From the NCBI GenBank assembly GCA_965223415.1, contig OZ245002.1, positions 224,001 to 288,000 on the forward strand: a stretch of 64,000 nt of DNA, written 5' to 3'. Every line of letters starts with the position of its first letter. Positions within the stretch are counted from its first letter, which is position 1. Under the pieces are notes generated by a model. The model ran no database searches. It was not told where the DNA came from and saw nothing but the letters and a program-made list of their open reading frames with translations. Shown piece by piece: positions 34,183 to 59,329 of this stretch. The translations under genes were made by a program, and so were the position numbers. Origin of the DNA: Myxococcota bacterium (GTDB lineage Bacteria; Myxococcota_A; UBA9160; UBA6930).

Positions 34183-34272
34183 GAATGAAGAAACGGGGCC
34201 AGAGTTAAGAATGAAGAAACCCTCCCCGGAGGGCGCAACTGAATTCTTAACTCCGGCCCCGTTTCTTCATTC
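34183..34272. repeat. 90-bp inverted-repeat element (family B)
   Basis: 30-bp arms gaatgaagaaacggggccagagttaagaat / attcttaactccggccccgtttcttcattc (1 mismatch); shares its core with 54254-54325. Confidence 0.9.
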
Positions 34273-49495: not shown

Positions 49496-49948
49496 TCAGT
49501 GCTCGCTGTGGTCTTCGTGCCCTCCGTCGTGGGCGGGCGCCCGAACCTCGGCGGCGACCTCGAGCGTGCCTCCACCCTCCAGCTCGAGCACGAGCTCGAC
49601 GCTCTCCCCGGCATCGGGGAGCGTGGGACCCATCAGCATCACGTGGAGGCCCCGCGGCGCCAGGTCCACCGAGCCTCCGGCCGGGACCTCGATCACTTCG
49701 ACGGGGACCATCTTCGCCACGCCGTCCTCGACCCGGGTCTCGTGGAGCGACGCCTTCTCGGCCGCGGCGCAGCGCACGCCGGTGACGCGGACGGCTTCGG
49801 CGCCGGTGTTGTGCAGCATCAGGTAGGCCGCGGCCGGCGACCCCGGCGGCGGCTGGGGAACCCAGGCGTCGTGCGCCATGAGCTCGCCGGCCCAAGCGCC
49901 TGAGGCGACGGCGAGCAGCAAGGCGGCCGCGAACGTGAACCGGATCAT
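49496..49948 (-). CDS. Copper chaperone PCu(A)C
   Basis: Signal peptide, AAYL, LHET...M, PRGLHVML, His-rich tail. Confidence 0.93.
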   Translation of the reverse strand: MIRFTFAAALLLAVASGAWAGELMAHDAWVPQPPPGSPAAAYLMLHNTGAEAVRVTGVRCAAAEKASLHETRVEDGVAKMVPVEVIEVPAGGSVDLAPRGLHVMLMGPTLPDAGESVELVLELEGGGTLEVAAEVRAPAHDGGHEDHSEH

Positions 49949-50616
49949 GAGGTCTCCTTCTCCAGGGATTGGACGATGGCCAGGGTGTCCAGGAACTCGG
50001 CGGGATCGTGGGGCTCTTCGAGCACGGCGCGCAGGTGGGCGTCGGGCCCCACGAGGAAGACGAAGGCGGTGTGGTCGACCCGGTAGGCGTCGGGAGCGTC
50101 GGCCGGGACTTCGGCGCGGTAGAAGGCACCCACCGCGTCGACCAGGGGATCGACGGCCCGCGCCTCACCGGTGACGCCCAGGAACGCGGGATCGAAGTAG
50201 GCGACGTACTCGGCCAGCCGCTCCACCGGGTCCCGCTGCGGATCGACCGAGACGAAGACCACTTCGGGAAACGCCGACGTGCTGCGGGTGCGCAACGCCG
50301 CCTCACGCCGGGCGCTGGCCAGGCCCTGCAGGGTCAGGGGGCAGACGTCGGGACACGAGGTGTAGCCGAAGAAGAGCAGGCTCCAGCCGCCGACGAGCCG
50401 CGCGCGGTCGAAGGGCTCGCCGCGGTGATCGATCAGGTCGAAGGCGGGAAGCTCGCGGGGCACGCGCAGAATCCGGCCGGCCTCGCCCAGCTCGGGAACC
50501 TCGGCCGGCGCGAGGCGCGCGAGGTAGACGCCGAAGGTCACCAGCCCCGTGAGCACGAGGGCGACGAGCACGACCAGGGGGCGGTCCGATCCGGCGGCTC
50601 CGGGGGGCGAGTCCAT
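49945..50616 (-). CDS. SCO/SenC family protein
   Basis: FFGYTSCPDVCP, VDPQRD, VDH. Confidence 0.95.
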   Translation of the reverse strand: MDSPPGAAGSDRPLVVLVALVLTGLVTFGVYLARLAPAEVPELGEAGRILRVPRELPAFDLIDHRGEPFDRARLVGGWSLLFFGYTSCPDVCPLTLQGLASARREAALRTRSTSAFPEVVFVSVDPQRDPVERLAEYVAYFDPAFLGVTGEARAVDPLVDAVGAFYRAEVPADAPDAYRVDHTAFVFLVGPDAHLRAVLEEPHDPAEFLDTLAIVQSLEKETS

Positions 50617-50628
50617 GGCGCGAGAACC

Positions 50629-51234
50629 CTAGCGGACCACAGCGGGTCGAAGGGCGCCTCGCCAGCGACGCGCCTGCAGCCAGCCCACTGCCAGGGCGCC
50701 GGCCAGCATGCCGGCGCTCATCGTCGCGAAGGTCGCCAGCAGCTGGAGCGCGGGCCAGGCCGCGAGGCCGACGGGGAGGAGCCGCGGGCCGGCCGCCATG
50801 CCGGCGACCATGCCCACGAGACAGAGCAGCTGGGAGCCGACCTGGCGCCACGGGTCCCCCCGGCGCCAGCCCGCACAGGAGAAGCAGGCAGCGGCCATGC
50901 CGACGACCATCCAGCTCGCGCCCAGGGCGGCCGCGCCCTCCCCGCACAGGCAAGAGCAGGCACCGCCCTGGATCGCCGGTGCGAAGCCGGCGTCGGCCCA
51001 CCAGCCCGCCAGCATGCCGGCGCTGCCCACCGAGAGGGTTCCGAGGGCGCGAAGCGACCCCGGGCTAGCCGACGCGCCGACGCGTCCGGCGACCCACCCG
51101 GCGGCCAGGCTCGAGGCCAGACACAGCAGCCCCACCCCTGCCCAGTCGGCCCCGACCAGCAGGGCGAGGAGCGGCCCCTGGAGCCAGGCGCAGCCCGCGT
51201 AGACCCATCCCCGCCAGCCGATCGCCGATCGCAT
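50629..51234 (-). CDS. Cys/Met-rich membrane protein of unknown function
   Basis: About 6 hydrophobic segments, repeated GMxxG, CSCLC; co-oriented with SCO and PCuAC. Confidence 0.6.
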   Translation of the reverse strand: MRSAIGWRGWVYAGCAWLQGPLLALLVGADWAGVGLLCLASSLAAGWVAGRVGASASPGSLRALGTLSVGSAGMLAGWWADAGFAPAIQGGACSCLCGEGAAALGASWMVVGMAAACFSCAGWRRGDPWRQVGSQLLCLVGMVAGMAAGPRLLPVGLAAWPALQLLATFATMSAGMLAGALAVGWLQARRWRGALRPAVVR

Positions 51235-53177: not shown

Positions 53178-54299
53178 ATGCAGGAACCGCTTCACGATCG
53201 AAACCTCGCGAGCCTCCACCGGCTCACCACCCCCGCCGCCCTGTGCGCGGCGATGCCGGTCCCCGAAGCCCTCGGCGCCCAGGTGCTTGCCGCCCGGGAC
53301 GCCGTGCGCGCCGTGCTCCACGGCCGCGACCGGGAGCGGCTCGTGGTGGTGGTCGGCCCGTGCTCGCTCCACGACCGGGAGGCGAGCCTCGCCTACGCGG
53401 AGCGTCTGCGCGGAGCCGCCGAGCGCTTCCCCGAGCTGCTGATCGTGATGCGGACCTACTTCGAGAAGCCGCGCACGACCGTGGGCTGGAAGGGGCTGAT
53501 CAACGACCCGCACCTCGACGGCAGCGGCGACATCGAGCACGGCCTGCGGGCGGCCCGCGGGCTGCTGCTCGAGATCGGCGCCCTCGGGCTGCCCTGTGCC
53601 AGCGAGGTGCTCGACCCGGTGACGCCCCAGTTCCTGGCGGACCTGCTCTCCTGGGTCGCGATCGGCGCCCGGACCACCGAGAGCCAGACCCACCGCGAGA
53701 TGGCCAGCGGCCTCTCCATGCCGGTCGGCTTCAAGAACGGCACGGAAGGCGATCTGCAGGTGGCCCTCGATGCGATGGTCTCGGCGAGCCATCCCCACCA
53801 TTTCCTGGGCATCGATCCGGACGGCGCCGTCGCCGTCGTCGCCACCCGCGGCAACCCGGACCACCACATCGTGCTGCGGGGCGGTCGCAGCGGGCCGAAC
53901 TTCGGCGCCGGCCACGTGGCCGAGGCGGGCCTGCGCCTCGCCGAGCTGGGCATCGCCCGCGGCGTGATGGTCGACTGCTCCCACGACAACTCGGGAAAGG
54001 ACCCGAGCCGTCAGGGCACCGTGTGCCGCGCGGTCCTCGCGCAGGTGCGCGCGGGCCAGAGTGGCCTGATGGGCGTGATGCTCGAGAGCCACCTCCACGA
54101 GGGCCGCCAGGATTGGCAGGCGAGCCCCCGCGCCTTCGGCGTCTCCATCACCGACGGCTGCATCGGCTGGGACGAGACCGAGGGCCTTCTCGAAGACGCC
54201 GCCGACGCGGTCCGCGGGGCCCGCCGACGCCCACGACCCGAGCGCCGCGTAAGAAGCGGGGCCGGAGTTAAGAATTCAGTTACCCCCTTCGGGGGGTAA
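53178..54299 (+). CDS. DAHP synthase, class I (AroF/G/H type)
   Basis: VGPCSLHD, MRTYFEKPRTTVGWKGLINDP, IGARTTESQTHRE, DCSH.NS, SITDGC. Confidence 0.97.
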   Translation: MQEPLHDRNLASLHRLTTPAALCAAMPVPEALGAQVLAARDAVRAVLHGRDRERLVVVVGPCSLHDREASLAYAERLRGAAERFPELLIVMRTYFEKPRTTVGWKGLINDPHLDGSGDIEHGLRAARGLLLEIGALGLPCASEVLDPVTPQFLADLLSWVAIGARTTESQTHREMASGLSMPVGFKNGTEGDLQVALDAMVSASHPHHFLGIDPDGAVAVVATRGNPDHHIVLRGGRSGPNFGAGHVAEAGLRLAELGIARGVMVDCSHDNSGKDPSRQGTVCRAVLAQVRAGQSGLMGVMLESHLHEGRQDWQASPRAFGVSITDGCIGWDETEGLLEDAADAVRGARRRPRPERRVRSGAGVKNSVTPFGG

Positions 54300-54325
54300 C
54301 TGAATTCTTAACTCCGGCCCCGCTT
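54254..54325. repeat. 72-bp perfect palindrome with TTCG loop (family B)
   Basis: 34-bp stem aagcggggccggagttaagaattcagttaccccc-ttcg-reverse complement; overlaps the 3' ends of two convergent genes. Confidence 0.92.
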
Positions 54326-55387
54326 TCCGAGCAGGTTGAGCTTGAAGCGGCGGATGACGTCGGGGGGGATGCGGTTGCCCTGCGTGTCCTCGAAGAAGAG
54401 CGCGTCCTTGGGGCACTGGACGATGCAGGCGCCGCAGCGGATGCAGCGATCGTCGTGGGCGAGCGCCACCTTGCGCTCCGGCCCGAGCTTCTCGAAGCAC
54501 GCCTCGGGACAGACCTCCCAGCAGCGGTAGACGCCCTCACAGCGCTCCGCGTCGAGGGTGATGCGGTGGCCACGGTCGTCGAAGTGGCTGCCGCCGGCGA
54601 TCGGCGTGCTGCCGTCGTAGTCGAAGGTGAGGAGTGCGGTCAGGCCGAGGGGCGCCAGGACGGCGGCGACGAGAGCGCCGGTGCCCCCGCCGGCGAGGAG
54701 CGTCCCGCCCACGGCGATGGCGAGACTCGCGGCGGCCAGGACGAGGCGCCGGGCGGAGCCGAGACGGTCGTAGAGGGCGAAGACCGCCACGGCCATCGCG
54801 ACGACGCCGGCGACGAGGGGAAGCGCCCAGGCCGGGCGAAGCGCCAGGGCCAGGCCCCCGAGCAGGACCGCGGTCGGGAACGCCCAGGCCGCGGCCATCT
54901 CGAGCCGCTCCCGGGCGCCGAAGCGGACCCTGCGCATGGCATCGGTCTTCTCGCCGGCGGCGAGATAGGCGGGCAGGTCCTCGGCCTGGACCGGACCGAA
55001 GGCGACCTGCCAGCGGCAGCGCCGGAACACGTCCAGGGCGAGGGCGCCGGTGGCGGCGAGCTGGGGCAGGATCACGCGCCGGTGGGTGACGCGCTCGGCG
55101 ATGCCGCAGGTCTTGAGCGCGGTCACGACCTGATGGGTGGAGAAGTGGCCGCCGGAGGCCGCGCACCAGACGTTGATGCCGCCGGAGGGAGCCACGACCA
55201 CCCAGGCGTCGTGGCTGGGCAGGGCGCGCATCACCCGCCGCACCGTCAGGTCGTAGTTGCCCGTGAGCACCACGGGGCTCGTCTCGTCCGGGTGCCCCAC
55301 CTGGCGCAGGCCGGGCTCGGTGGGCCACGGCACCAGGCGGAGGCCGGCCTGGGCCGCGTCGCGAAGCAGCTCTCCGACCCGGCTCAC
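54308..55387 (-). CDS. Fused HgcAB-like protein: corrinoid-binding (CdhD-like) domain + TM helices + ferredoxin
   Basis: PGL..VG.PDETSPVVLTGNYDLT, GINVWCAASGG, ILPQLAATG, FGPV.AEDLP; ~4 TM; CEGVYRCWEVCP and CIRCGACIVQCP. Confidence 0.88.
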   Translation of the reverse strand: MSRVGELLRDAAQAGLRLVPWPTEPGLRQVGHPDETSPVVLTGNYDLTVRRVMRALPSHDAWVVVAPSGGINVWCAASGGHFSTHQVVTALKTCGIAERVTHRRVILPQLAATGALALDVFRRCRWQVAFGPVQAEDLPAYLAAGEKTDAMRRVRFGARERLEMAAAWAFPTAVLLGGLALALRPAWALPLVAGVVAMAVAVFALYDRLGSARRLVLAAASLAIAVGGTLLAGGGTGALVAAVLAPLGLTALLTFDYDGSTPIAGGSHFDDRGHRITLDAERCEGVYRCWEVCPEACFEKLGPERKVALAHDDRCIRCGACIVQCPKDALFFEDTQGNRIPPDVIRRFKLNLLGKRGRS

Positions 55388-56055
55388 GGGGCGGGCTCCG
55401 CAACGTACAGGGCCAGCGTGCCCGCGAGCCAGTGCTCCTCGTCGCACGGGACGAAGCCAGCGGCCCGCAGCTCGCCCTCCAGATCCGCCAGCGGGCTCGA
55501 GACCGAGCCGACGAGCAGCCAGCCGAGCGCCGCCAGGGGGAGACGACCGAGCCGCTGCAGCACGCCGCGCAGTCCCGGCGCGCGCACCTCGTCCGCCGCA
55601 ACGACCCGCCCGCCCGGCGCCAGCCGCGCCACACACTCGCGCAGCACGTAGGCCCGCTCGCTCGTCGACATGTCGGAGAGGCAGAGGCTCAGGACCACCG
55701 CGTCGTAGCCGGCCGCAGGAAGGCGATCGATCTCGGCGGCGGTCTGTTCGAGCCACGTGACCTTCTCGCCCTCCGGCTCCGCAGCGCCGGCTCGGCCGAG
55801 GCGAGCCCCGGCCTGCTCGAGCATCTCCGGCGACGCGTCGAGCGCCGTGACACGCGCCCCGGCCCCGACCAGGCGCTCGGTCACCGCGCCGGTGCCGCAG
55901 CCGATCTCGAGCACGCGCGCCCGCGGGCGCTGCACGCTGGCGGCCGCCACCGCGTCGTGCAGGCGCGTGACCCGGCCCAGGGTGAGCGCGCGCATGCCCG
56001 CGTCGTAGCGCCCCGGCGTGGCCTCGAGCAGACGCATGAGCGCGAGCGAGCTCAC
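55384..56055 (-). CDS. Class I SAM methyltransferase (corrinoid-protein-associated type)
   Basis: VLEIGCGTG, LDAS..ML, L.PGG; GTGA overlaps at both ends. Confidence 0.88.
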   Translation of the reverse strand: MSSLALMRLLEATPGRYDAGMRALTLGRVTRLHDAVAAASVQRPRARVLEIGCGTGAVTERLVGAGARVTALDASPEMLEQAGARLGRAGAAEPEGEKVTWLEQTAAEIDRLPAAGYDAVVLSLCLSDMSTSERAYVLRECVARLAPGGRVVAADEVRAPGLRGVLQRLGRLPLAALGWLLVGSVSSPLADLEGELRAAGFVPCDEEHWLAGTLALYVAEPAP

Positions 56056-56633
56056 GGCCGCAGGACCCGGTGAGCGGCCTCGCGTAGTGCCGCGGCCAGC
56101 GCCTCCGGCGCCGGCAGCGCGCCCGGGTCGGCGAAGTACTGGAGCAGGAGCCCGTCGATGGCGCCGATCAGGATCGACGCCTGGAGGCTCGCGTCGGTGG
56201 AGGCCGCCATGCTGCCCTCCGCCTGGCCCTCCTCGATCACCCGGGCCAGCTCGGCGCGGAGACTCGCGAAGGTTCCGCGCAGGAGATCGACGCTGCCGAT
56301 CCGGAGGTCGAGGATCATGCGCCCGAACTCCGCCCACTCCGGGAAGAGCGCCGCGCAGGCGGCCAGCAGGGCGTCGATCCGCTCGAAGGGCGTTCCGCCT
56401 CCGGCGAGCCGGGCCCGGAAGAGCTGCTGCTCCTGCTCCAGGACCTCCTGCACGAGGTCCGCGAGCAGCGACTCCTTGTCCGGGTAGTAGTGGTAGAGGC
56501 TGGAGCGGCCCATGCCGGCGGCCTCGGCCACGCGGCCGAGCCCGGTCCCCCGCACGCCGCGCTCGGCGAAGACGCTCCGGGCGGCGGCCCGGATCTCCTC
56601 CCGTTGGGCGGCGGGATCGACCTGCTTCGGCAT
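56052..56633 (-). CDS. TetR/AcrR family transcriptional regulator
   Basis: N-terminal HTH VAEAAGMGRSSLYHYYPDKE. Confidence 0.95.
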   Translation of the reverse strand: MPKQVDPAAQREEIRAAARSVFAERGVRGTGLGRVAEAAGMGRSSLYHYYPDKESLLADLVQEVLEQEQQLFRARLAGGGTPFERIDALLAACAALFPEWAEFGRMILDLRIGSVDLLRGTFASLRAELARVIEEGQAEGSMAASTDASLQASILIGAIDGLLLQYFADPGALPAPEALAAALREAAHRVLRP

Positions 56634-56649
56634 GGGCTCCTCGGTGTTT

Positions 56650-56686
56650 TCGACAGTCTAGTCGATATCGACAGATCTGTCGATAT
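56650..56686 (-). promoter_or_regulatory. Tandem TetR-type operators overlapping the tetR promoter
   Basis: TCGAC-N6-GTCGA at 56650 and 56668, the second inside the perfect 22-bp palindrome atatcgacagatctgtcgatat; minus strand TCGACA-N17-TAGACT. Confidence 0.8.
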
Positions 56687-56728
56687 TGCCGCTCAATCGA
56701 AGGCCCGGAAAGACCGATTCGGAGAGCG

Positions 56729-59329
56729 ATGGGGAACGGCTCCGGAAGGACGTGCGGCCCGGCCACCTGGGCGCTCGCCCTCGCGCTGACGTGCGCGAGC
56801 GTGGGCGCGAGTGCTCCCGCGTGGGGCGACGAGGCGGCCTCCTCGCGCTCCGTGGACGCCCTCCAGGCCGAGGCGGCGCGCTACCAGCGCGAGGGGCGTT
56901 GGGAGGAGGCGGAAGCGACCCTCAAGGAGGCGATCGCCCGAGCGCCGGGGCGCAAGGAGCTCTACGAGGCACTGGCGGACGTGCACCTCCGGGAGGGCAA
57001 GGCGCCGACACCGGAGAGCGTCGCCGAGACCGCAGAGCCCGCCGCGCCGCGCCCGCCGGAGACCTCCCTCGATACCCTGCTTCGCCAGGTGGAAGCGCTC
57101 GGTGCGGACCAGGCCGAGCTCGCCGTGCTGGTGGCGGTCGGGCTACTGGTCCTGCTCGTGCTGGTCATGGGCCTTCGCGCCGTGCTGCGGCGTCCGGCCC
57201 AGCTCGCCGTGGAGATCGATCTCCCGCCGGGCCGCGGCGGCACCTTCTGCGTACGGCTCGCGAAGCAGCGTCCCCCCGCGCGGCGCCTCGATCCGGACTT
57301 CCGGCCGGCGGAGCGGAGCTCGACCCCCCTGGAACACTACGGGGTCTCGCGGGAGACGCTCTTCCAGGACGTGCCGACCCGCGGCGGGTGGGTGGTGCTC
57401 GAAGGCCGCCTGTCCGACGGCGAGGTCGTGGCCCGGGAGATCGAGGTGCTGCCGACCGCGGGCAGCGTCGCGAGGGTGAAGTTCGACCTGGCGCCGGAGG
57501 CGTGCGTCATCGACGTGCAGCTCCGCCACGACCAGCGACGCATCGAAGGGCACGTGGCCGTGGCCGGGGATCCGGACTCCCTGCGTCGCTCCAAGCACGG
57601 AACCGTGCGGCTGCGGCTCCCGCCGGGCCGTCACCAGCTGCTCGCGGCCGGCGAAGGCTGCGGCGCCGAGCGGGCGATCGAGATCGAGGACTTCGCACCC
57701 GTCAGCCTGGAATGGAACTTCGGCGAAGGGGCCGAGCTGCTGTTCTCCGATTGCGACGAGGCGGTGCTCCCGTTCTTGCGCGGCGATCTCTCGGTGGCGG
57801 CCGGCGCCTTGGAACGGGCGGGCCAGGCGGAGCGCGGCGCGCTCCTGGAGGCGCGCTTCCACCGGGACCGCGGCGCCGTGGATCGCGCGGTCGAGCGCTT
57901 CGAGCAGGCGGGCCGGCGGCTCGAGGCCGCCGAGCTGCTGGCCGAGAACGGGCGTTTCGAGGACGCGGCGCGGCGCTTCGAACAGGCCGGCGACCTCGAG
58001 CGCGCGGCGGAGATGTTCAACGCCGAGGGCGATCTGCTGCGCGCGGCCAAGGCCTACATGGATGCGGACGACCTGGAATCGGCCATCGTCTGCTGCCGCG
58101 AGGCCGGAGACGTGCCCCTCCTGATCGACGTGCTCGAGAAGAAGGGCGACCACTTCGAAGCCGGCCAGCTGGCCATGGATCGGAACGACGTGGAGCGGGC
58201 GATCCGGAACTTCCAGCGGGTCGACGCACGCCACGAGCAGTACTTCCAGGCTTGCCGCATCCTCGCCGAGGCCTTCGAGAAGCAGGGCAAGGACGAGCTG
58301 GCCATCCAGAAGGCGGACGAAGCGGTGAGCATCCGCAGCGCCGACGAGCTGACGCCGAAGCTGCGGGTGTGGCACGCGAACCTGCTCGACCGGGCCGGCC
58401 GCCCGGACCGTGCGGTGAAGCTCCTGCAGGCGCTGCGCGACGAGCTGCCGGAGCGCATGCCGAACCTGGACACCCACATCGAGGCGGTGCGGCGCCGGGC
58501 GGAGGAGATGTCCGCCGGCTCACTGCGCGCGTTCGGGGACGAGAGCCGGTACGAGCTCCACGAGCAGATCGGCAGCGGGGGCATGGGCGTCGTCTACCGG
58601 GCAACGGACCGGCGCCTGGGACGGGACGTGGCGCTCAAGCGACTGCCCGAGAACCTGAAGGACCATCCCAAGGCGGTGGAGCTCTTCCTCCGCGAGGCCC
58701 AGGCGGCGGCGAGCCTGAACCATCCCAACATCGTGACCGTGCACGACGTCGACGCCGAGGGCGGGGTCTACTTCATCACCATGGAGCTCCTGCGCGGCTC
58801 GAACCTGCTGCAGCTGGTGCGCGCGAAGGGGCGGCTCACCTGGGCCGACGCCGCGCGCCTCGGCATCCAGGCCGCGACGGGCCTGGGCTACGCCCACGCC
58901 CAGGGCATCATCCACCGCGACGTGAAGAGCGCGAACCTCTTCTTCACCGACGACAAGATGCTGAAGATCATGGACTTCGGTCTCGCCAAGATGGCCGCCG
59001 AGGTGCGCAAGGCCACGACCGTGACGGGCGGCACGCCCTACTACATGGCGCCGGAGCAGGGCCGCGAGGCCGACGCCGTCGACCACCGCGCCGACCTCTA
59101 CGCCCTCGGCGTGACCCTCTTCGAGCTGCTCAGCGGCCGCCGCCCCTTCGAGGAAGGCGACGTCGCCGCCCACCACCGCGACACCCCGGCCCCGGACCCC
59201 CGCATCCACGGCATCGACCTCCCCGAAGCCTTCGCCAACCTCGTCGCTCAGCTCCTCGCCAAGGACCCGGAAGCCCGCCCCGCCACCACCGACCGCCTCA
59301 TCCGCAGCCTCAAGGCGATCGTTGCGTGA
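56729..59329 (+). CDS. Membrane Ser/Thr protein kinase with TPR-like repeats and C-terminal kinase domain
   Basis: Signal peptide, TPR, TM helix, helical repeats; IGSGGMG, VALK, HRDVKSAN, DFG, GTPYYMAPE. Confidence 0.93.
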   Translation: MGNGSGRTCGPATWALALALTCASVGASAPAWGDEAASSRSVDALQAEAARYQREGRWEEAEATLKEAIARAPGRKELYEALADVHLREGKAPTPESVAETAEPAAPRPPETSLDTLLRQVEALGADQAELAVLVAVGLLVLLVLVMGLRAVLRRPAQLAVEIDLPPGRGGTFCVRLAKQRPPARRLDPDFRPAERSSTPLEHYGVSRETLFQDVPTRGGWVVLEGRLSDGEVVAREIEVLPTAGSVARVKFDLAPEACVIDVQLRHDQRRIEGHVAVAGDPDSLRRSKHGTVRLRLPPGRHQLLAAGEGCGAERAIEIEDFAPVSLEWNFGEGAELLFSDCDEAVLPFLRGDLSVAAGALERAGQAERGALLEARFHRDRGAVDRAVERFEQAGRRLEAAELLAENGRFEDAARRFEQAGDLERAAEMFNAEGDLLRAAKAYMDADDLESAIVCCREAGDVPLLIDVLEKKGDHFEAGQLAMDRNDVERAIRNFQRVDARHEQYFQACRILAEAFEKQGKDELAIQKADEAVSIRSADELTPKLRVWHANLLDRAGRPDRAVKLLQALRDELPERMPNLDTHIEAVRRRAEEMSAGSLRAFGDESRYELHEQIGSGGMGVVYRATDRRLGRDVALKRLPENLKDHPKAVELFLREAQAAASLNHPNIVTVHDVDAEGGVYFITMELLRGSNLLQLVRAKGRLTWADAARLGIQAATGLGYAHAQGIIHRDVKSANLFFTDDKMLKIMDFGLAKMAAEVRKATTVTGGTPYYMAPEQGREADAVDHRADLYALGVTLFELLSGRRPFEEGDVAAHHRDTPAPDPRIHGIDLPEAFANLVAQLLAKDPEARPATTDRLIRSLKAIVA

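Follow-up and report, generated by a model that had tools for sequence, protein, structure and literature searches.

The closest described relatives of the locus reported here are the true HgcA/HgcB proteins and a family of fused HgcAB-like proteins. The cap-helix motif of true HgcA is N(V/I)WC(A/S)(A/G/S)GK, as given in the available sections of PMC10087281. For purified true HgcAB, the accessible text of PMC11588087 describes methylation of Co(I) by SAM with Cys-thiolate ligation and rates the C-terminal Cys pair of HgcB as crucial. Organisms with fused HgcAB, identified as such by their description, made no MeHg in culture according to the accessible parts of two studies (PMC4646819, PMC10087281), and most published fused examples are of anaerobic origin, a single aerobe being mentioned. 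The accessible text of Podar et al. adds that MeHg-free cultures of P. furiosus do not prove the enzyme incapable of the reaction.

NCBIfam curates a family of fused proteins as NF043039 (HgcAB-like fusion protein) and a partner enzyme as NF043040 (corrinoid protein-associated methyltransferase, CpaM). Neither name was found as a phrase in the literature searched, a search on fused hgcA with a methyltransferase in Myxococcota found nothing, and "cpam" returned, among the matches listed, unrelated acronyms only. Here, we compare a locus from a Myxococcota bacterium with these systems. We regard it, with a probability of roughly 0.6, as a member of the catalogued CpaM/HgcAB-like family, a self-contained module of two enzymes under TetR repression that would work by the methyl-transfer scheme proposed below.

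Operon layout, regulation and gene linkage

The window, meaning the whole 64,000-nt stretch of DNA that was analyzed, contains the following features at the locus:

56650..56686, minus strand: two tandem palindromic putative operator sites (sequence reading)
56052..56633, minus strand: TetR-family repressor gene, 193 aa (P0003; TetR_N PF00440, E 3.4e-14; TetR_C_6, 3.5e-07)
55384..56055, minus strand: CpaM, corrinoid protein-associated class I SAM methyltransferase, 223 aa (P0002; NF043040; Methyltransf_25, 1.3e-17)
54308..55387, minus strand: HgcAB-like fusion protein gene, 359 aa (P0001; NF043039, 376.5 bits, cut-off 285)
54917..55387, minus strand: corrinoid-binding domain, residues 1-157 (CdhD PF03599, E 1e-13)
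54629..54916, minus strand: four predicted TM helices, residues 158-253 (AlphaFold2)
54311..54580, minus strand: ferredoxin domain, residues 270-359 (Fer4 families, Pfam)
54254..54325, no strand assigned: 34-nt perfect inverted repeat with a 4-nt loop, between the convergent fusion and DAHP-synthase genes

The genes run in the order TetR, methyltransferase, fusion protein, and GTGA start/stop overlaps join all three: the GTG start of the methyltransferase gene overlaps the TetR stop codon, and the GTG start of the fusion gene overlaps the methyltransferase stop codon. Both overlaps on which the initial annotation had based translational coupling are thus present on the minus strand. Read from the sequence, TetR, SAM methyltransferase and membrane corrinoid/Fe-S protein form a genuine three-gene operon. 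It is flanked by DAHP synthase and Ser/Thr kinase genes, and its composition is not anomalous (GC 0.745 at 54-56 kb versus 0.65-0.75 across the window). The 34-nt inverted repeat provides the final codons and the stop for both the fusion and the DAHP-synthase genes, and belongs to a dispersed family with 79 arm matches genome-wide (0 for the reversed control).

An N-terminal HTH and a conserved palindrome at its own promoter, to which it is predicted to bind, identify the first gene product as a TetR-family repressor. The site at 56668-56683 reads TCGACA-N4-TGTCGA and lies within a 22-nt perfect palindrome (56665-56686), and a second, imperfect palindrome spans 56650-56665. Both overlap a promoter-like site with a -35 box TCGACA starting from 56683, a 17-nt spacer and a -10 box TAGACT ending at 56655; it is the only such site found, and shuffles give a mean of 0.0. 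In 49 of 51 related loci, the pattern TCGAC-N4-8-GTCGA recurs upstream of TetR at a distance of at most 150 nt, compared with 38 matches elsewhere in 855,415 nt. A TetR homologue stands directly upstream of the methyltransferase in 52/69 related loci. In the other 17 it is absent and the upstream genes are unrelated (seven with Pfam matches to different families, ten without), so the regulator is an accessory.

In 71 of the 74 related loci with room for it, the methyltransferase gene is the immediate upstream neighbor and shares the strand. Moreover, one locus (L086) holds a single in-frame CpaM-HgcAB ORF of 601 aa, and two Asgard proteins (P0127 and P0128) show this arrangement in single chains. 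The natural single-chain MTase-HgcA proteins, 25 in number, have invariant columns in both parts, and 11 of them also carry a ferredoxin motif; the AlphaFold2 model of one (P0124) reaches pLDDT 84.8 but a pTM of only 0.64, too low to establish how the methyltransferase would dock on the corrinoid domain. These gene neighborhoods and fusions show CpaM and the fusion protein to be linked in a near-obligatory manner and argue for a functional tie between the methyltransferase and the corrinoid protein. The TetR-MTase-fusion unit put forward from the single sequence is thus upheld by the synteny of related loci, in which the two enzymes co-occur. Beyond the three genes, no neighbor is conserved in 80 loci (the largest outside cluster comprises 7 loci), and clustering of the neighborhoods for a hint of the substrate returned nothing conserved outside the cassette.

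The locus is not a rarity, as the initial annotation had implied. Both proteins belong to curated NCBIfam families, more than 2257 homologues exist, and 43 of the 401 genomes sampled from the host's phylum carry the cassette, with 2/10 in the host's own family. By its profile matches, the cassette is an ordinary copy of a widespread, already catalogued family (NF043039 plus NF043040).

The two enzymes and their distance from true HgcA

Pfam matches (CdhD and Fer4) and the AlphaFold2 model place a corrinoid domain, a TM segment and a dicluster ferredoxin in one chain, which bears out the earlier description of a CdhD-like domain with GINVWCAASGG, about four TM helices and a ferredoxin. The chain covers positions 4-349 of the 350 in the NF043039 model. 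In the AlphaFold2 model (pLDDT 85.6, pTM 0.82), long helices at 158-183, 185-208, 210-231 and 236-253 lie between the corrinoid and ferredoxin domains. The corrinoid domain matches the CFeSP large subunit (2h9a) by profile (E 1.5e-17, residues 18-142); the best Foldseek match is the HgcAB model 9a0b_A, and CFeSP superimposes with an rmsd of 2.3-2.7 Å over ~127 residues. The modeling thus shows a predicted HgcA-like fold with four TM helices. Cys75 of the cap motif (55163-55165) is a candidate cobalt ligand, and the fold and motif matches together suggest that the protein may bind cobalamin.

In the first Fe-S motif, CEGVYRCWEVCP, Val replaces the expected second Cys. Ferredoxin motif 1, CEGVYRCWEVCPEAC, hence leaves cluster I with three Cys, as in a 7Fe ferredoxin, and motif 2, CIRCGACIVQCP, is canonical. 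No GK follows the cap Cys, and the C-terminal tail contains no Cys. These oddities, all noted at the outset, are real. An 80-sequence alignment shows them to be clade traits and not peculiar to the copy in the window: the cap G(I/V)N(V/I)WCA(A/S)(A/S)GG is found in 80/80 relatives, the second Cys of Fe-S motif 1 is missing in 77/80, and none of the 80 has a Cys within the last 25 residues.

CpaM scores 240.2 bits against NF043040 (NCBIfam cut-off 180), and its gene adjoins and overlaps that of the corrinoid protein, which places it in this family. Its N-terminus, read from the GTG start, agrees with the family consensus; across 58 CpaM sequences, M1 and S2 are nearly invariant and the GxGxG motif is invariant. 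The next-best family matches are small-molecule methyltransferases of the UbiE/MenG and ArsM type (E ~1e-12).

The initial annotation had set the fusion protein apart from canonical HgcA, and profile searches and phylogeny agree. While homology to CdhD/HgcA is evident, the protein reaches 163.6 bits on the true-HgcA model NF040863, below the cut-off of 275; the model gives 429-442 bits for true HgcA genes from the host's phylum. Its cap reads NVWCAASGGH and does not fit the true-HgcA motif, the GK being found in 0/80 relatives. On the HgcB model NF040864, it reaches 47 bits (cut-off 99), and the HgcB-like part is fused, lacks Cys II in motif 1 and has no tail Cys. Furthermore, its clade is distinct from HgcA of the NVWCAAGK type. 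For contrast, 15 sub-cut-off loci were fetched from the same phylum. NVWCAAGK is carried by 14 of these, a CpaM or TetR match within ~3 kb by none of the 15, and the true-HgcA cut-off was passed in 4/5 genomes checked from this set. The substrate is probably not mercury.

The host is equipped for O2 respiration, in keeping with the O2 use suggested at the outset. SCO1/SenC is indeed encoded in the window (49945..50616), and better support comes from the 5.83-Mb one-contig genome, where COX1 (PF00115) matches above the cut-off reveal three heme-copper oxidases. An aerobic host is not unusual, however, aerobes being the norm for this clade. COX1 was found in 7/7 other hosts of three-Cys proteins and in 1/3 hosts with a four-Cys motif, all Chloroflexota, in a small sample of related genomes and MAGs of uncertain completeness; a link between the three-Cys cluster and O2 is a lead only. 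The host genome has eight B12-binding-domain matches over cut-off and neither CobS nor CbiD, so the corrinoid is probably scavenged. Its single PF03599 match is the fusion gene itself, which leaves no partner for a pairing of the Wood-Ljungdahl CFeSP kind in this genome.

A proposed methyl-transfer route and its alternatives

Since SAM is the donor of true HgcAB in the accessible text of PMC11588087, the most likely route here would lead from SAM via CpaM to Cys-ligated cobalt and on to an acceptor. The initial proposal of "SAM to Co to acceptor" thereby has a direct precedent in the purified protein, as described in that text. TetR would occupy the two palindromes over the -35 and -10 boxes until some ligand frees the promoter, after which translation of the three genes would be coupled. 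Given an even number of TM helices, the corrinoid domain at the N-terminus and the ferredoxin domain at the C-terminus would both lie on the cytoplasmic side. The ferredoxin domain, whose cluster I with three Cys ligands is probably a [3Fe-4S] center as in 7Fe ferredoxins of aerobes, would reduce cobalt to Co(I). CpaM would then move the methyl group of SAM onto Co(I), yielding methyl-Co(III) with Cys75 as the lower ligand, and the methyl would pass to an acceptor other than Hg(II). This acceptor may be a soft metal(loid), an electrophile, or a lipophilic molecule reached via the membrane domain. Since true HgcAB makes use of SAM with no CpaM involved, a separate methyltransferase may be dispensable for a corrinoid protein of the same fold, and the target of CpaM could be the final substrate rather than cobalt.

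Reductive-dehalogenase and QueG-type reductive enzymes also use a corrinoid together with two Fe-S clusters. This cofactor set would equally suit two enzymes acting sequentially on a small molecule, the membrane protein reducing or demethylating a substrate and CpaM methylating the product or a co-substrate. That true HgcAB, as far as its description is available, needs no methyltransferase for SAM use would fit such a division of labor, as would the similarity of CpaM to UbiE/MenG- and ArsM-type enzymes. We consider it unlikely: the recurrent covalent fusion of the methyltransferase immediately ahead of the corrinoid domain (25 proteins) is better explained by a protein-protein methyl relay, and the Cys cap is kept in 80/80 relatives, as in methyl-transferring HgcA. 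TetR regulators often sense lipophilic ligands, and with the membrane domain and the UbiE-like methyltransferase this could point to a biosynthetic tailoring module that methylates a membrane lipid, quinone or natural product, rather than to detoxification. Such a role is distinctly improbable, given that no neighbor except TetR is conserved in the 80 loci (at most 7 loci share another), that DAHP synthase and a Ser/Thr kinase flank this copy, and that the patchy spread of the family suits an accessory trait.

The least probable alternative is a mercury methylase that makes methylmercury, here in an aerobe. It would explain the HgcA-like fold and Cys-bearing cap and share the SAM donor described for true HgcAB in the available source. 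In addition, the negative cultures of P. furiosus are inconclusive on catalysis in the passage from Podar et al., and the negatives do not cover aerobic carriers as far as the available portion of bioRxiv 10.1101/2022.11.21.517362 indicates. Nevertheless, the sub-threshold NF040863 score, a cap without GK and a missing C-terminal Cys pair in all 80 relatives, and the clade separate from NVWCAAGK proteins make it very doubtful, and the tested carriers of fused HgcAB (by description) were all negative in the accessible accounts. We hence retain the relay from SAM through CpaM and cobalt as the preferred scheme.

As a long shot, the three-Cys clade might be an O2-tolerant SAM/corrinoid methylator of a metal(loid) in aerobes, with the CpaM partnership ancestral to HgcA-like proteins. 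Its hosts may be Myxococcota, Binatia, Acidobacteriota and Planctomycetota, its metal(loid) may include Hg in oxic/suboxic waters, and true HgcAB may be derived, its separate methyltransferase having been lost. The HgcAB-like family is large and related to an enzyme of environmental-health importance, and its CpaM system could reveal the original role of HgcA-like proteins. With SAM as donor of the true enzyme, a relative that brings along a SAM methyltransferase, at times covalently fused to it, is tractable for the question of SAM-to-corrinoid transfer, and the conserved putative TetR operator offers a simple reporter for the inducer. Because carriers are mostly aerobes, hgcA surveys with relaxed cut-offs may wrongly include them among mercury methylators. 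In oxic/suboxic ocean surveys, the Myxococcota "hgcA" scored as methylators could belong to this family; the accessible portions of both surveys mention no fusion (PMC12874090, PMC12953829).

Comparison with known systems

The Wood-Ljungdahl CFeSP (AcsC/AcsD, CdhE/CdhD) shares the fold of the corrinoid domain, as seen in the superposition and profile match given above. In contrast, the protein described here is membrane-bound, has no TIM-barrel partner and is encoded without a second CdhD-family gene in the host, and the CFeSP donor is methyl-tetrahydrofolate through MeTr. In methionine synthase (MetH), SAM and flavodoxin reductively methylate cob(II)alamin, so that an electron donor plus SAM regenerates methyl-cobalamin. 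A route from SAM via cobalamin to substrate is likewise followed in radical SAM enzymes of class B and in TsrM, named in the available text of PMC11588087. The folds of all these enzymes are unrelated to those at the present locus, where the SAM unit is a separate Rossmann-fold methyltransferase, and we claim no membership.

The ferredoxin domain resembles 7Fe ferredoxins of the FdxA type, with which it shares C-x5-C-x3-CP-x2-C and three ligands for cluster I. FdxA models match at E ~1e-6, and 7Fe ferredoxins are among the PDB sequence matches. Here, however, the domain is part of a membrane protein, and its spacing is shorter than the C-x7-C of FdxA.

With true HgcA/HgcB of Pseudodesulfovibrio mercurii ND132, the fusion protein shares a cap-Cys corrinoid domain, a membrane domain and a dicluster ferredoxin. 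The true proteins comprise two chains with 5 TM helices, the cap NVWCAAGK and a C-terminal Cys pair, whereas a single chain with four predicted TM helices, the cap NVWCAASGG and no Cys pair is found here. A three-Cys cluster I and a dedicated methyltransferase, the latter seen at 0/15 true HgcA loci, add to these differences. The regulator is TetR here and ArsR-like in ND132, according to the accessible part of bioRxiv 10.1101/2022.10.17.512643.

The architecture and gene order are those of NF043039/NF043040 and of the "fused HgcAB" of Podar et al. (2015) and Lin et al. (2023), as judged by description. Nothing essential distinguishes this locus from the catalogued family, the cap and ferredoxin motifs being typical of the clade; this copy has a TetR gene, as do 52/69 loci, and takes its last codons from a dispersed palindromic repeat.

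Gene organization and family assignment

Three minus-strand genes within 54308-56686 are joined at their ends by GTGA overlaps, the unit described in the initial annotation, and encode a TetR-family regulator, a SAM methyltransferase and an HgcAB-like fusion protein.

Features of the cassette and its borders (window coordinates)
56665-56686, upstream of tetR: 22-nt perfect palindrome enclosing the palindrome TCGACAGATCTGTCGA (sequence read)
56650-56665, upstream of tetR: imperfect tandem copy of the palindrome (sequence read)
56633..56052, minus: TetR-family regulator gene, 193 aa (Pfam TetR_N, 3.4e-14)
56055..55384, minus: class I SAM methyltransferase (CpaM) gene, 223 aa (Pfam Methyltransf_25, 1.3e-17)
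55387..54308, minus: HgcAB-like fusion protein gene, 359 aa (Pfam CdhD, 1e-13, and Fer4)
54254-54325: perfect 34-nt inverted repeat, AT-rich at its core (GAGTTAAGAATTCAGTTAC), where the fusion and DAHP-synthase genes converge

The fusion protein begins with a corrinoid domain of the CdhD type, continues through a hydrophobic central part and ends in a dicluster ferredoxin. An AlphaFold2 model with 80 relatives as input (pLDDT 85.6, pTM 0.82) has four long helices at residues 158-253, in agreement with the about four transmembrane helices proposed earlier for this single chain. The helix count is even and would therefore place the corrinoid and ferredoxin domains on one side of the membrane, presumably the cytoplasm, where SAM and CpaM are located.

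According to NCBIfam, the 359-aa protein is an HgcAB-like fusion protein (NF043039; 376.5 bits, cut-off 285) and its partner a corrinoid protein-associated methyltransferase CpaM (NF043040; 240.2 bits, cut-off 180). The fusion protein passes neither the true-HgcA model (163.6 bits, cut-off 275) nor the HgcB model (47 bits, cut-off 99). At least 2257 proteins match at E <= 1e-5 (word-indexed search, 8000 candidates scored); the best 119 listed relatives, the window's own protein aside, share 64-78% identity, and one protein among these 119 already carries the NCBI family name. Publications on fused HgcAB date back to Podar et al., 2015 (PMC4646819, available text), and the available text of Lin et al. 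assigns fused hgcAB to a separate clade (bioRxiv 10.1101/2022.11.21.517362). The cassette is an unexceptional representative of a family that is known, catalogued and uncharacterised.

Linkage, distribution and putative control

A scan with one genome per species found 146 relatives, and the best 80 loci were taken further. These are MAG loci throughout, labelled as Myxococcota/Deltaproteobacteria, Binatia, Chloroflexota, Acidobacteriota, Pirellulales and other groups. The gene order whose conservation the initial annotation proposed to test recurs: in 71 of 74 loci with 750 nt or more of upstream DNA, the same-strand gene immediately upstream is a CpaM homolog (L028, L052 and L079 are the exceptions), and a TetR homolog adjoins the methyltransferase on its upstream side in 52 of 69 loci with room. 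In the 17 TetR-less loci, the ORFs upstream of the methyltransferase are unrelated to one another. All-against-all ORF clustering revealed no further conserved gene in the 80 loci (largest non-cassette cluster, 7 loci); in the window, the flanking genes encode DAHP synthase and a TPR Ser/Thr kinase. The family cut-off is passed by 43 of 401 sampled genomes of the host's phylum, and 2 of 10 other genomes of its own family have a match. On these findings, the cassette acts like a portable accessory unit.

In a Chloroflexia MAG (L086), CpaM and the HgcAB-like protein form a single in-frame ORF of 601 aa, and the domains follow the same order in two Asgard proteins (643 and 639 aa). Many representatives match both parts of the 601-aa protein in an exhaustive HMMER search, and Pfam confirmed both domains in all six checked (P0130, P0148, P0155, P0156, P0192, P0219). 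Among 25 aligned single-chain proteins, columns are invariant in the methyltransferase part (GxG, acidic residues) and in the HgcA part (W-C of the Cys-bearing cap motif); CxxCxxCxxxCP is present in 11, and the remaining 14 terminate in the membrane part. A model of a natural single-chain protein reached pTM 0.64. Seven further HgcAB-like proteins of ~470-540 aa (P0169, P0198, P0204, P0228, P0246, P0255, P0270) have, in place of the methyltransferase, an N-terminal stretch of ~130-190 residues that lacks a Pfam match. P0126 (769 aa, 54% identical) has a C-terminal extension with a precomputed VirJ (PF06057) match, which may be a real fusion or read-through.

Of 51 related loci, 49 carry TCGAC-N4-8-GTCGA no more than 150 nt upstream of tetR; the remaining 855 kb of these loci contain it 38 times. 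The sole sigma-70-like site in 54150-56850 has both its -35 and -10 hexamers within the tetR-upstream palindromes. Autorepression of the whole operon by TetR through this putative operator is the natural reading. A Binatia subgroup has an operator variant with TCGTCGAC half-sites, suggesting that repressor and operator co-evolved; in the Binatia-type loci L039-L045, L070 and L075-L078 the variant reads TTTTCGTCGAC-N3-GTCGTCGAAAA.

At the opposite end, the inverted repeat at 54254-54325 supplies the final codons and stop codons of the fusion and DAHP-synthase genes, and the element is also present at 34231-34254. The genome has 79 copies of its arm (38 forward, 41 reverse; reversed control, 0), mostly as hairpin pairs. 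The repeat belongs to a dispersed family of palindromic elements of REP-like or terminator-like kind.

Clade-wide motifs and an oxygen-respiring host

The odd motifs noticed at the outset are real and common to the clade. In an 80-sequence alignment of the family, the cap G(I/V)N(V/I)WCA(A/S)(A/S)GG is present in 80/80, ferredoxin motif 1 lacks its second Cys in 77/80 (the three exceptions are Chloroflexota) and no sequence has a Cys within its last 25 residues.

The host genome, one contig of 5.83 Mb, contains three COX1 matches over cut-off, bearing out the proposed oxygen use, and 8 B12-binding-domain matches over cut-off; CobS, CbiD and a second CdhD-family gene were not found in it. The host is therefore an O2-respiring corrinoid user without the Wood-Ljungdahl pathway, and probably scavenges the cofactor. 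COX1 is present in 7/7 other hosts of three-Cys proteins vs 1/3 four-Cys hosts, a small sample of related genomes with uncertain MAG completeness, and this fits an oxygen-related change of ferredoxin cluster I. The available text of Lin et al. notes only one aerobic carrier of fused hgcAB (bioRxiv 10.1101/2022.11.21.517362). Between the SCO1/SenC and bacterioferritin genes of the window lies a 201-aa hydrophobic, Cys-containing ORF (50629-51234, minus) with no Pfam match at E <= 1e-5.

Proposed methyl transfer and comparison with true HgcAB

For purified true HgcAB, the available text of Zheng et al., 2024 gives SAM as the methyl source, Co(I) converted to methyl-Co(III) with a Cys thiolate as ligand, and electrons from the two HgcB clusters (PMC11588087). 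By this analogy, and because the methyltransferase is a near-obligatory and sometimes covalent partner, we favor, at a probability of about 0.6, a route in which the ferredoxin domain would reduce cobalt, CpaM would deliver the SAM methyl group onto Co(I) and the methyl group would leave for an acceptor other than Hg. The sequence data hold no pointer to the identity of this acceptor. The interpretation in the initial annotation, a cobalamin methyl-transfer system with a non-Hg substrate, is reasonable and supported in part; its underlying observation is confirmed.

The two enzymes might instead act in sequence on a small molecule, leaving cobalt unmethylated, a possible but unlikely account of the same partnership, and a biosynthetic tailoring role of the cassette seems doubtful. 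Methylation of Hg by the CpaM/HgcAB-like cassette is very improbable: the available text of PMC4646819 and PMC10087281 reports no methylmercury from cultured carriers of fused HgcAB, which, as described, may differ from the NF043039 and CpaM type.

Fifteen loci fetched from the same phylum, all under the NF043039 cut-off, served as a comparison set. NVWCAAGK is present in 14/15, and 4/5 genomes behind them pass the true-HgcA cut-off (429-442 bits); a CpaM or TetR match was found in 0/15 within the fetched DNA. In a quick maximum-likelihood tree with 120 rows, one clade (SH-aLRT 99) takes in all 80 two-gene family members, the L086 protein (P0124) and the long-branch outlier L101. Outside this clade are the NVWCAAGK proteins, alongside some long-branched single-chain MTase-HgcA proteins. 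The tree is midpoint-rooted, with no outgroup and several long branches, and so gives separation rather than direction. L101 (G332:C26:31578-32156 region) is a divergent HgcAB-like paralog that shares 34% identity across residues 17-356; its cap is GVNSWCPAGGGH, and the DNA fetched around it contains no CpaM or TetR match. The three ligands for cluster I and the following CPxxC recall 7Fe ferredoxins, and FdxA models and 7Fe ferredoxin structures are among the weak matches of the fusion protein.
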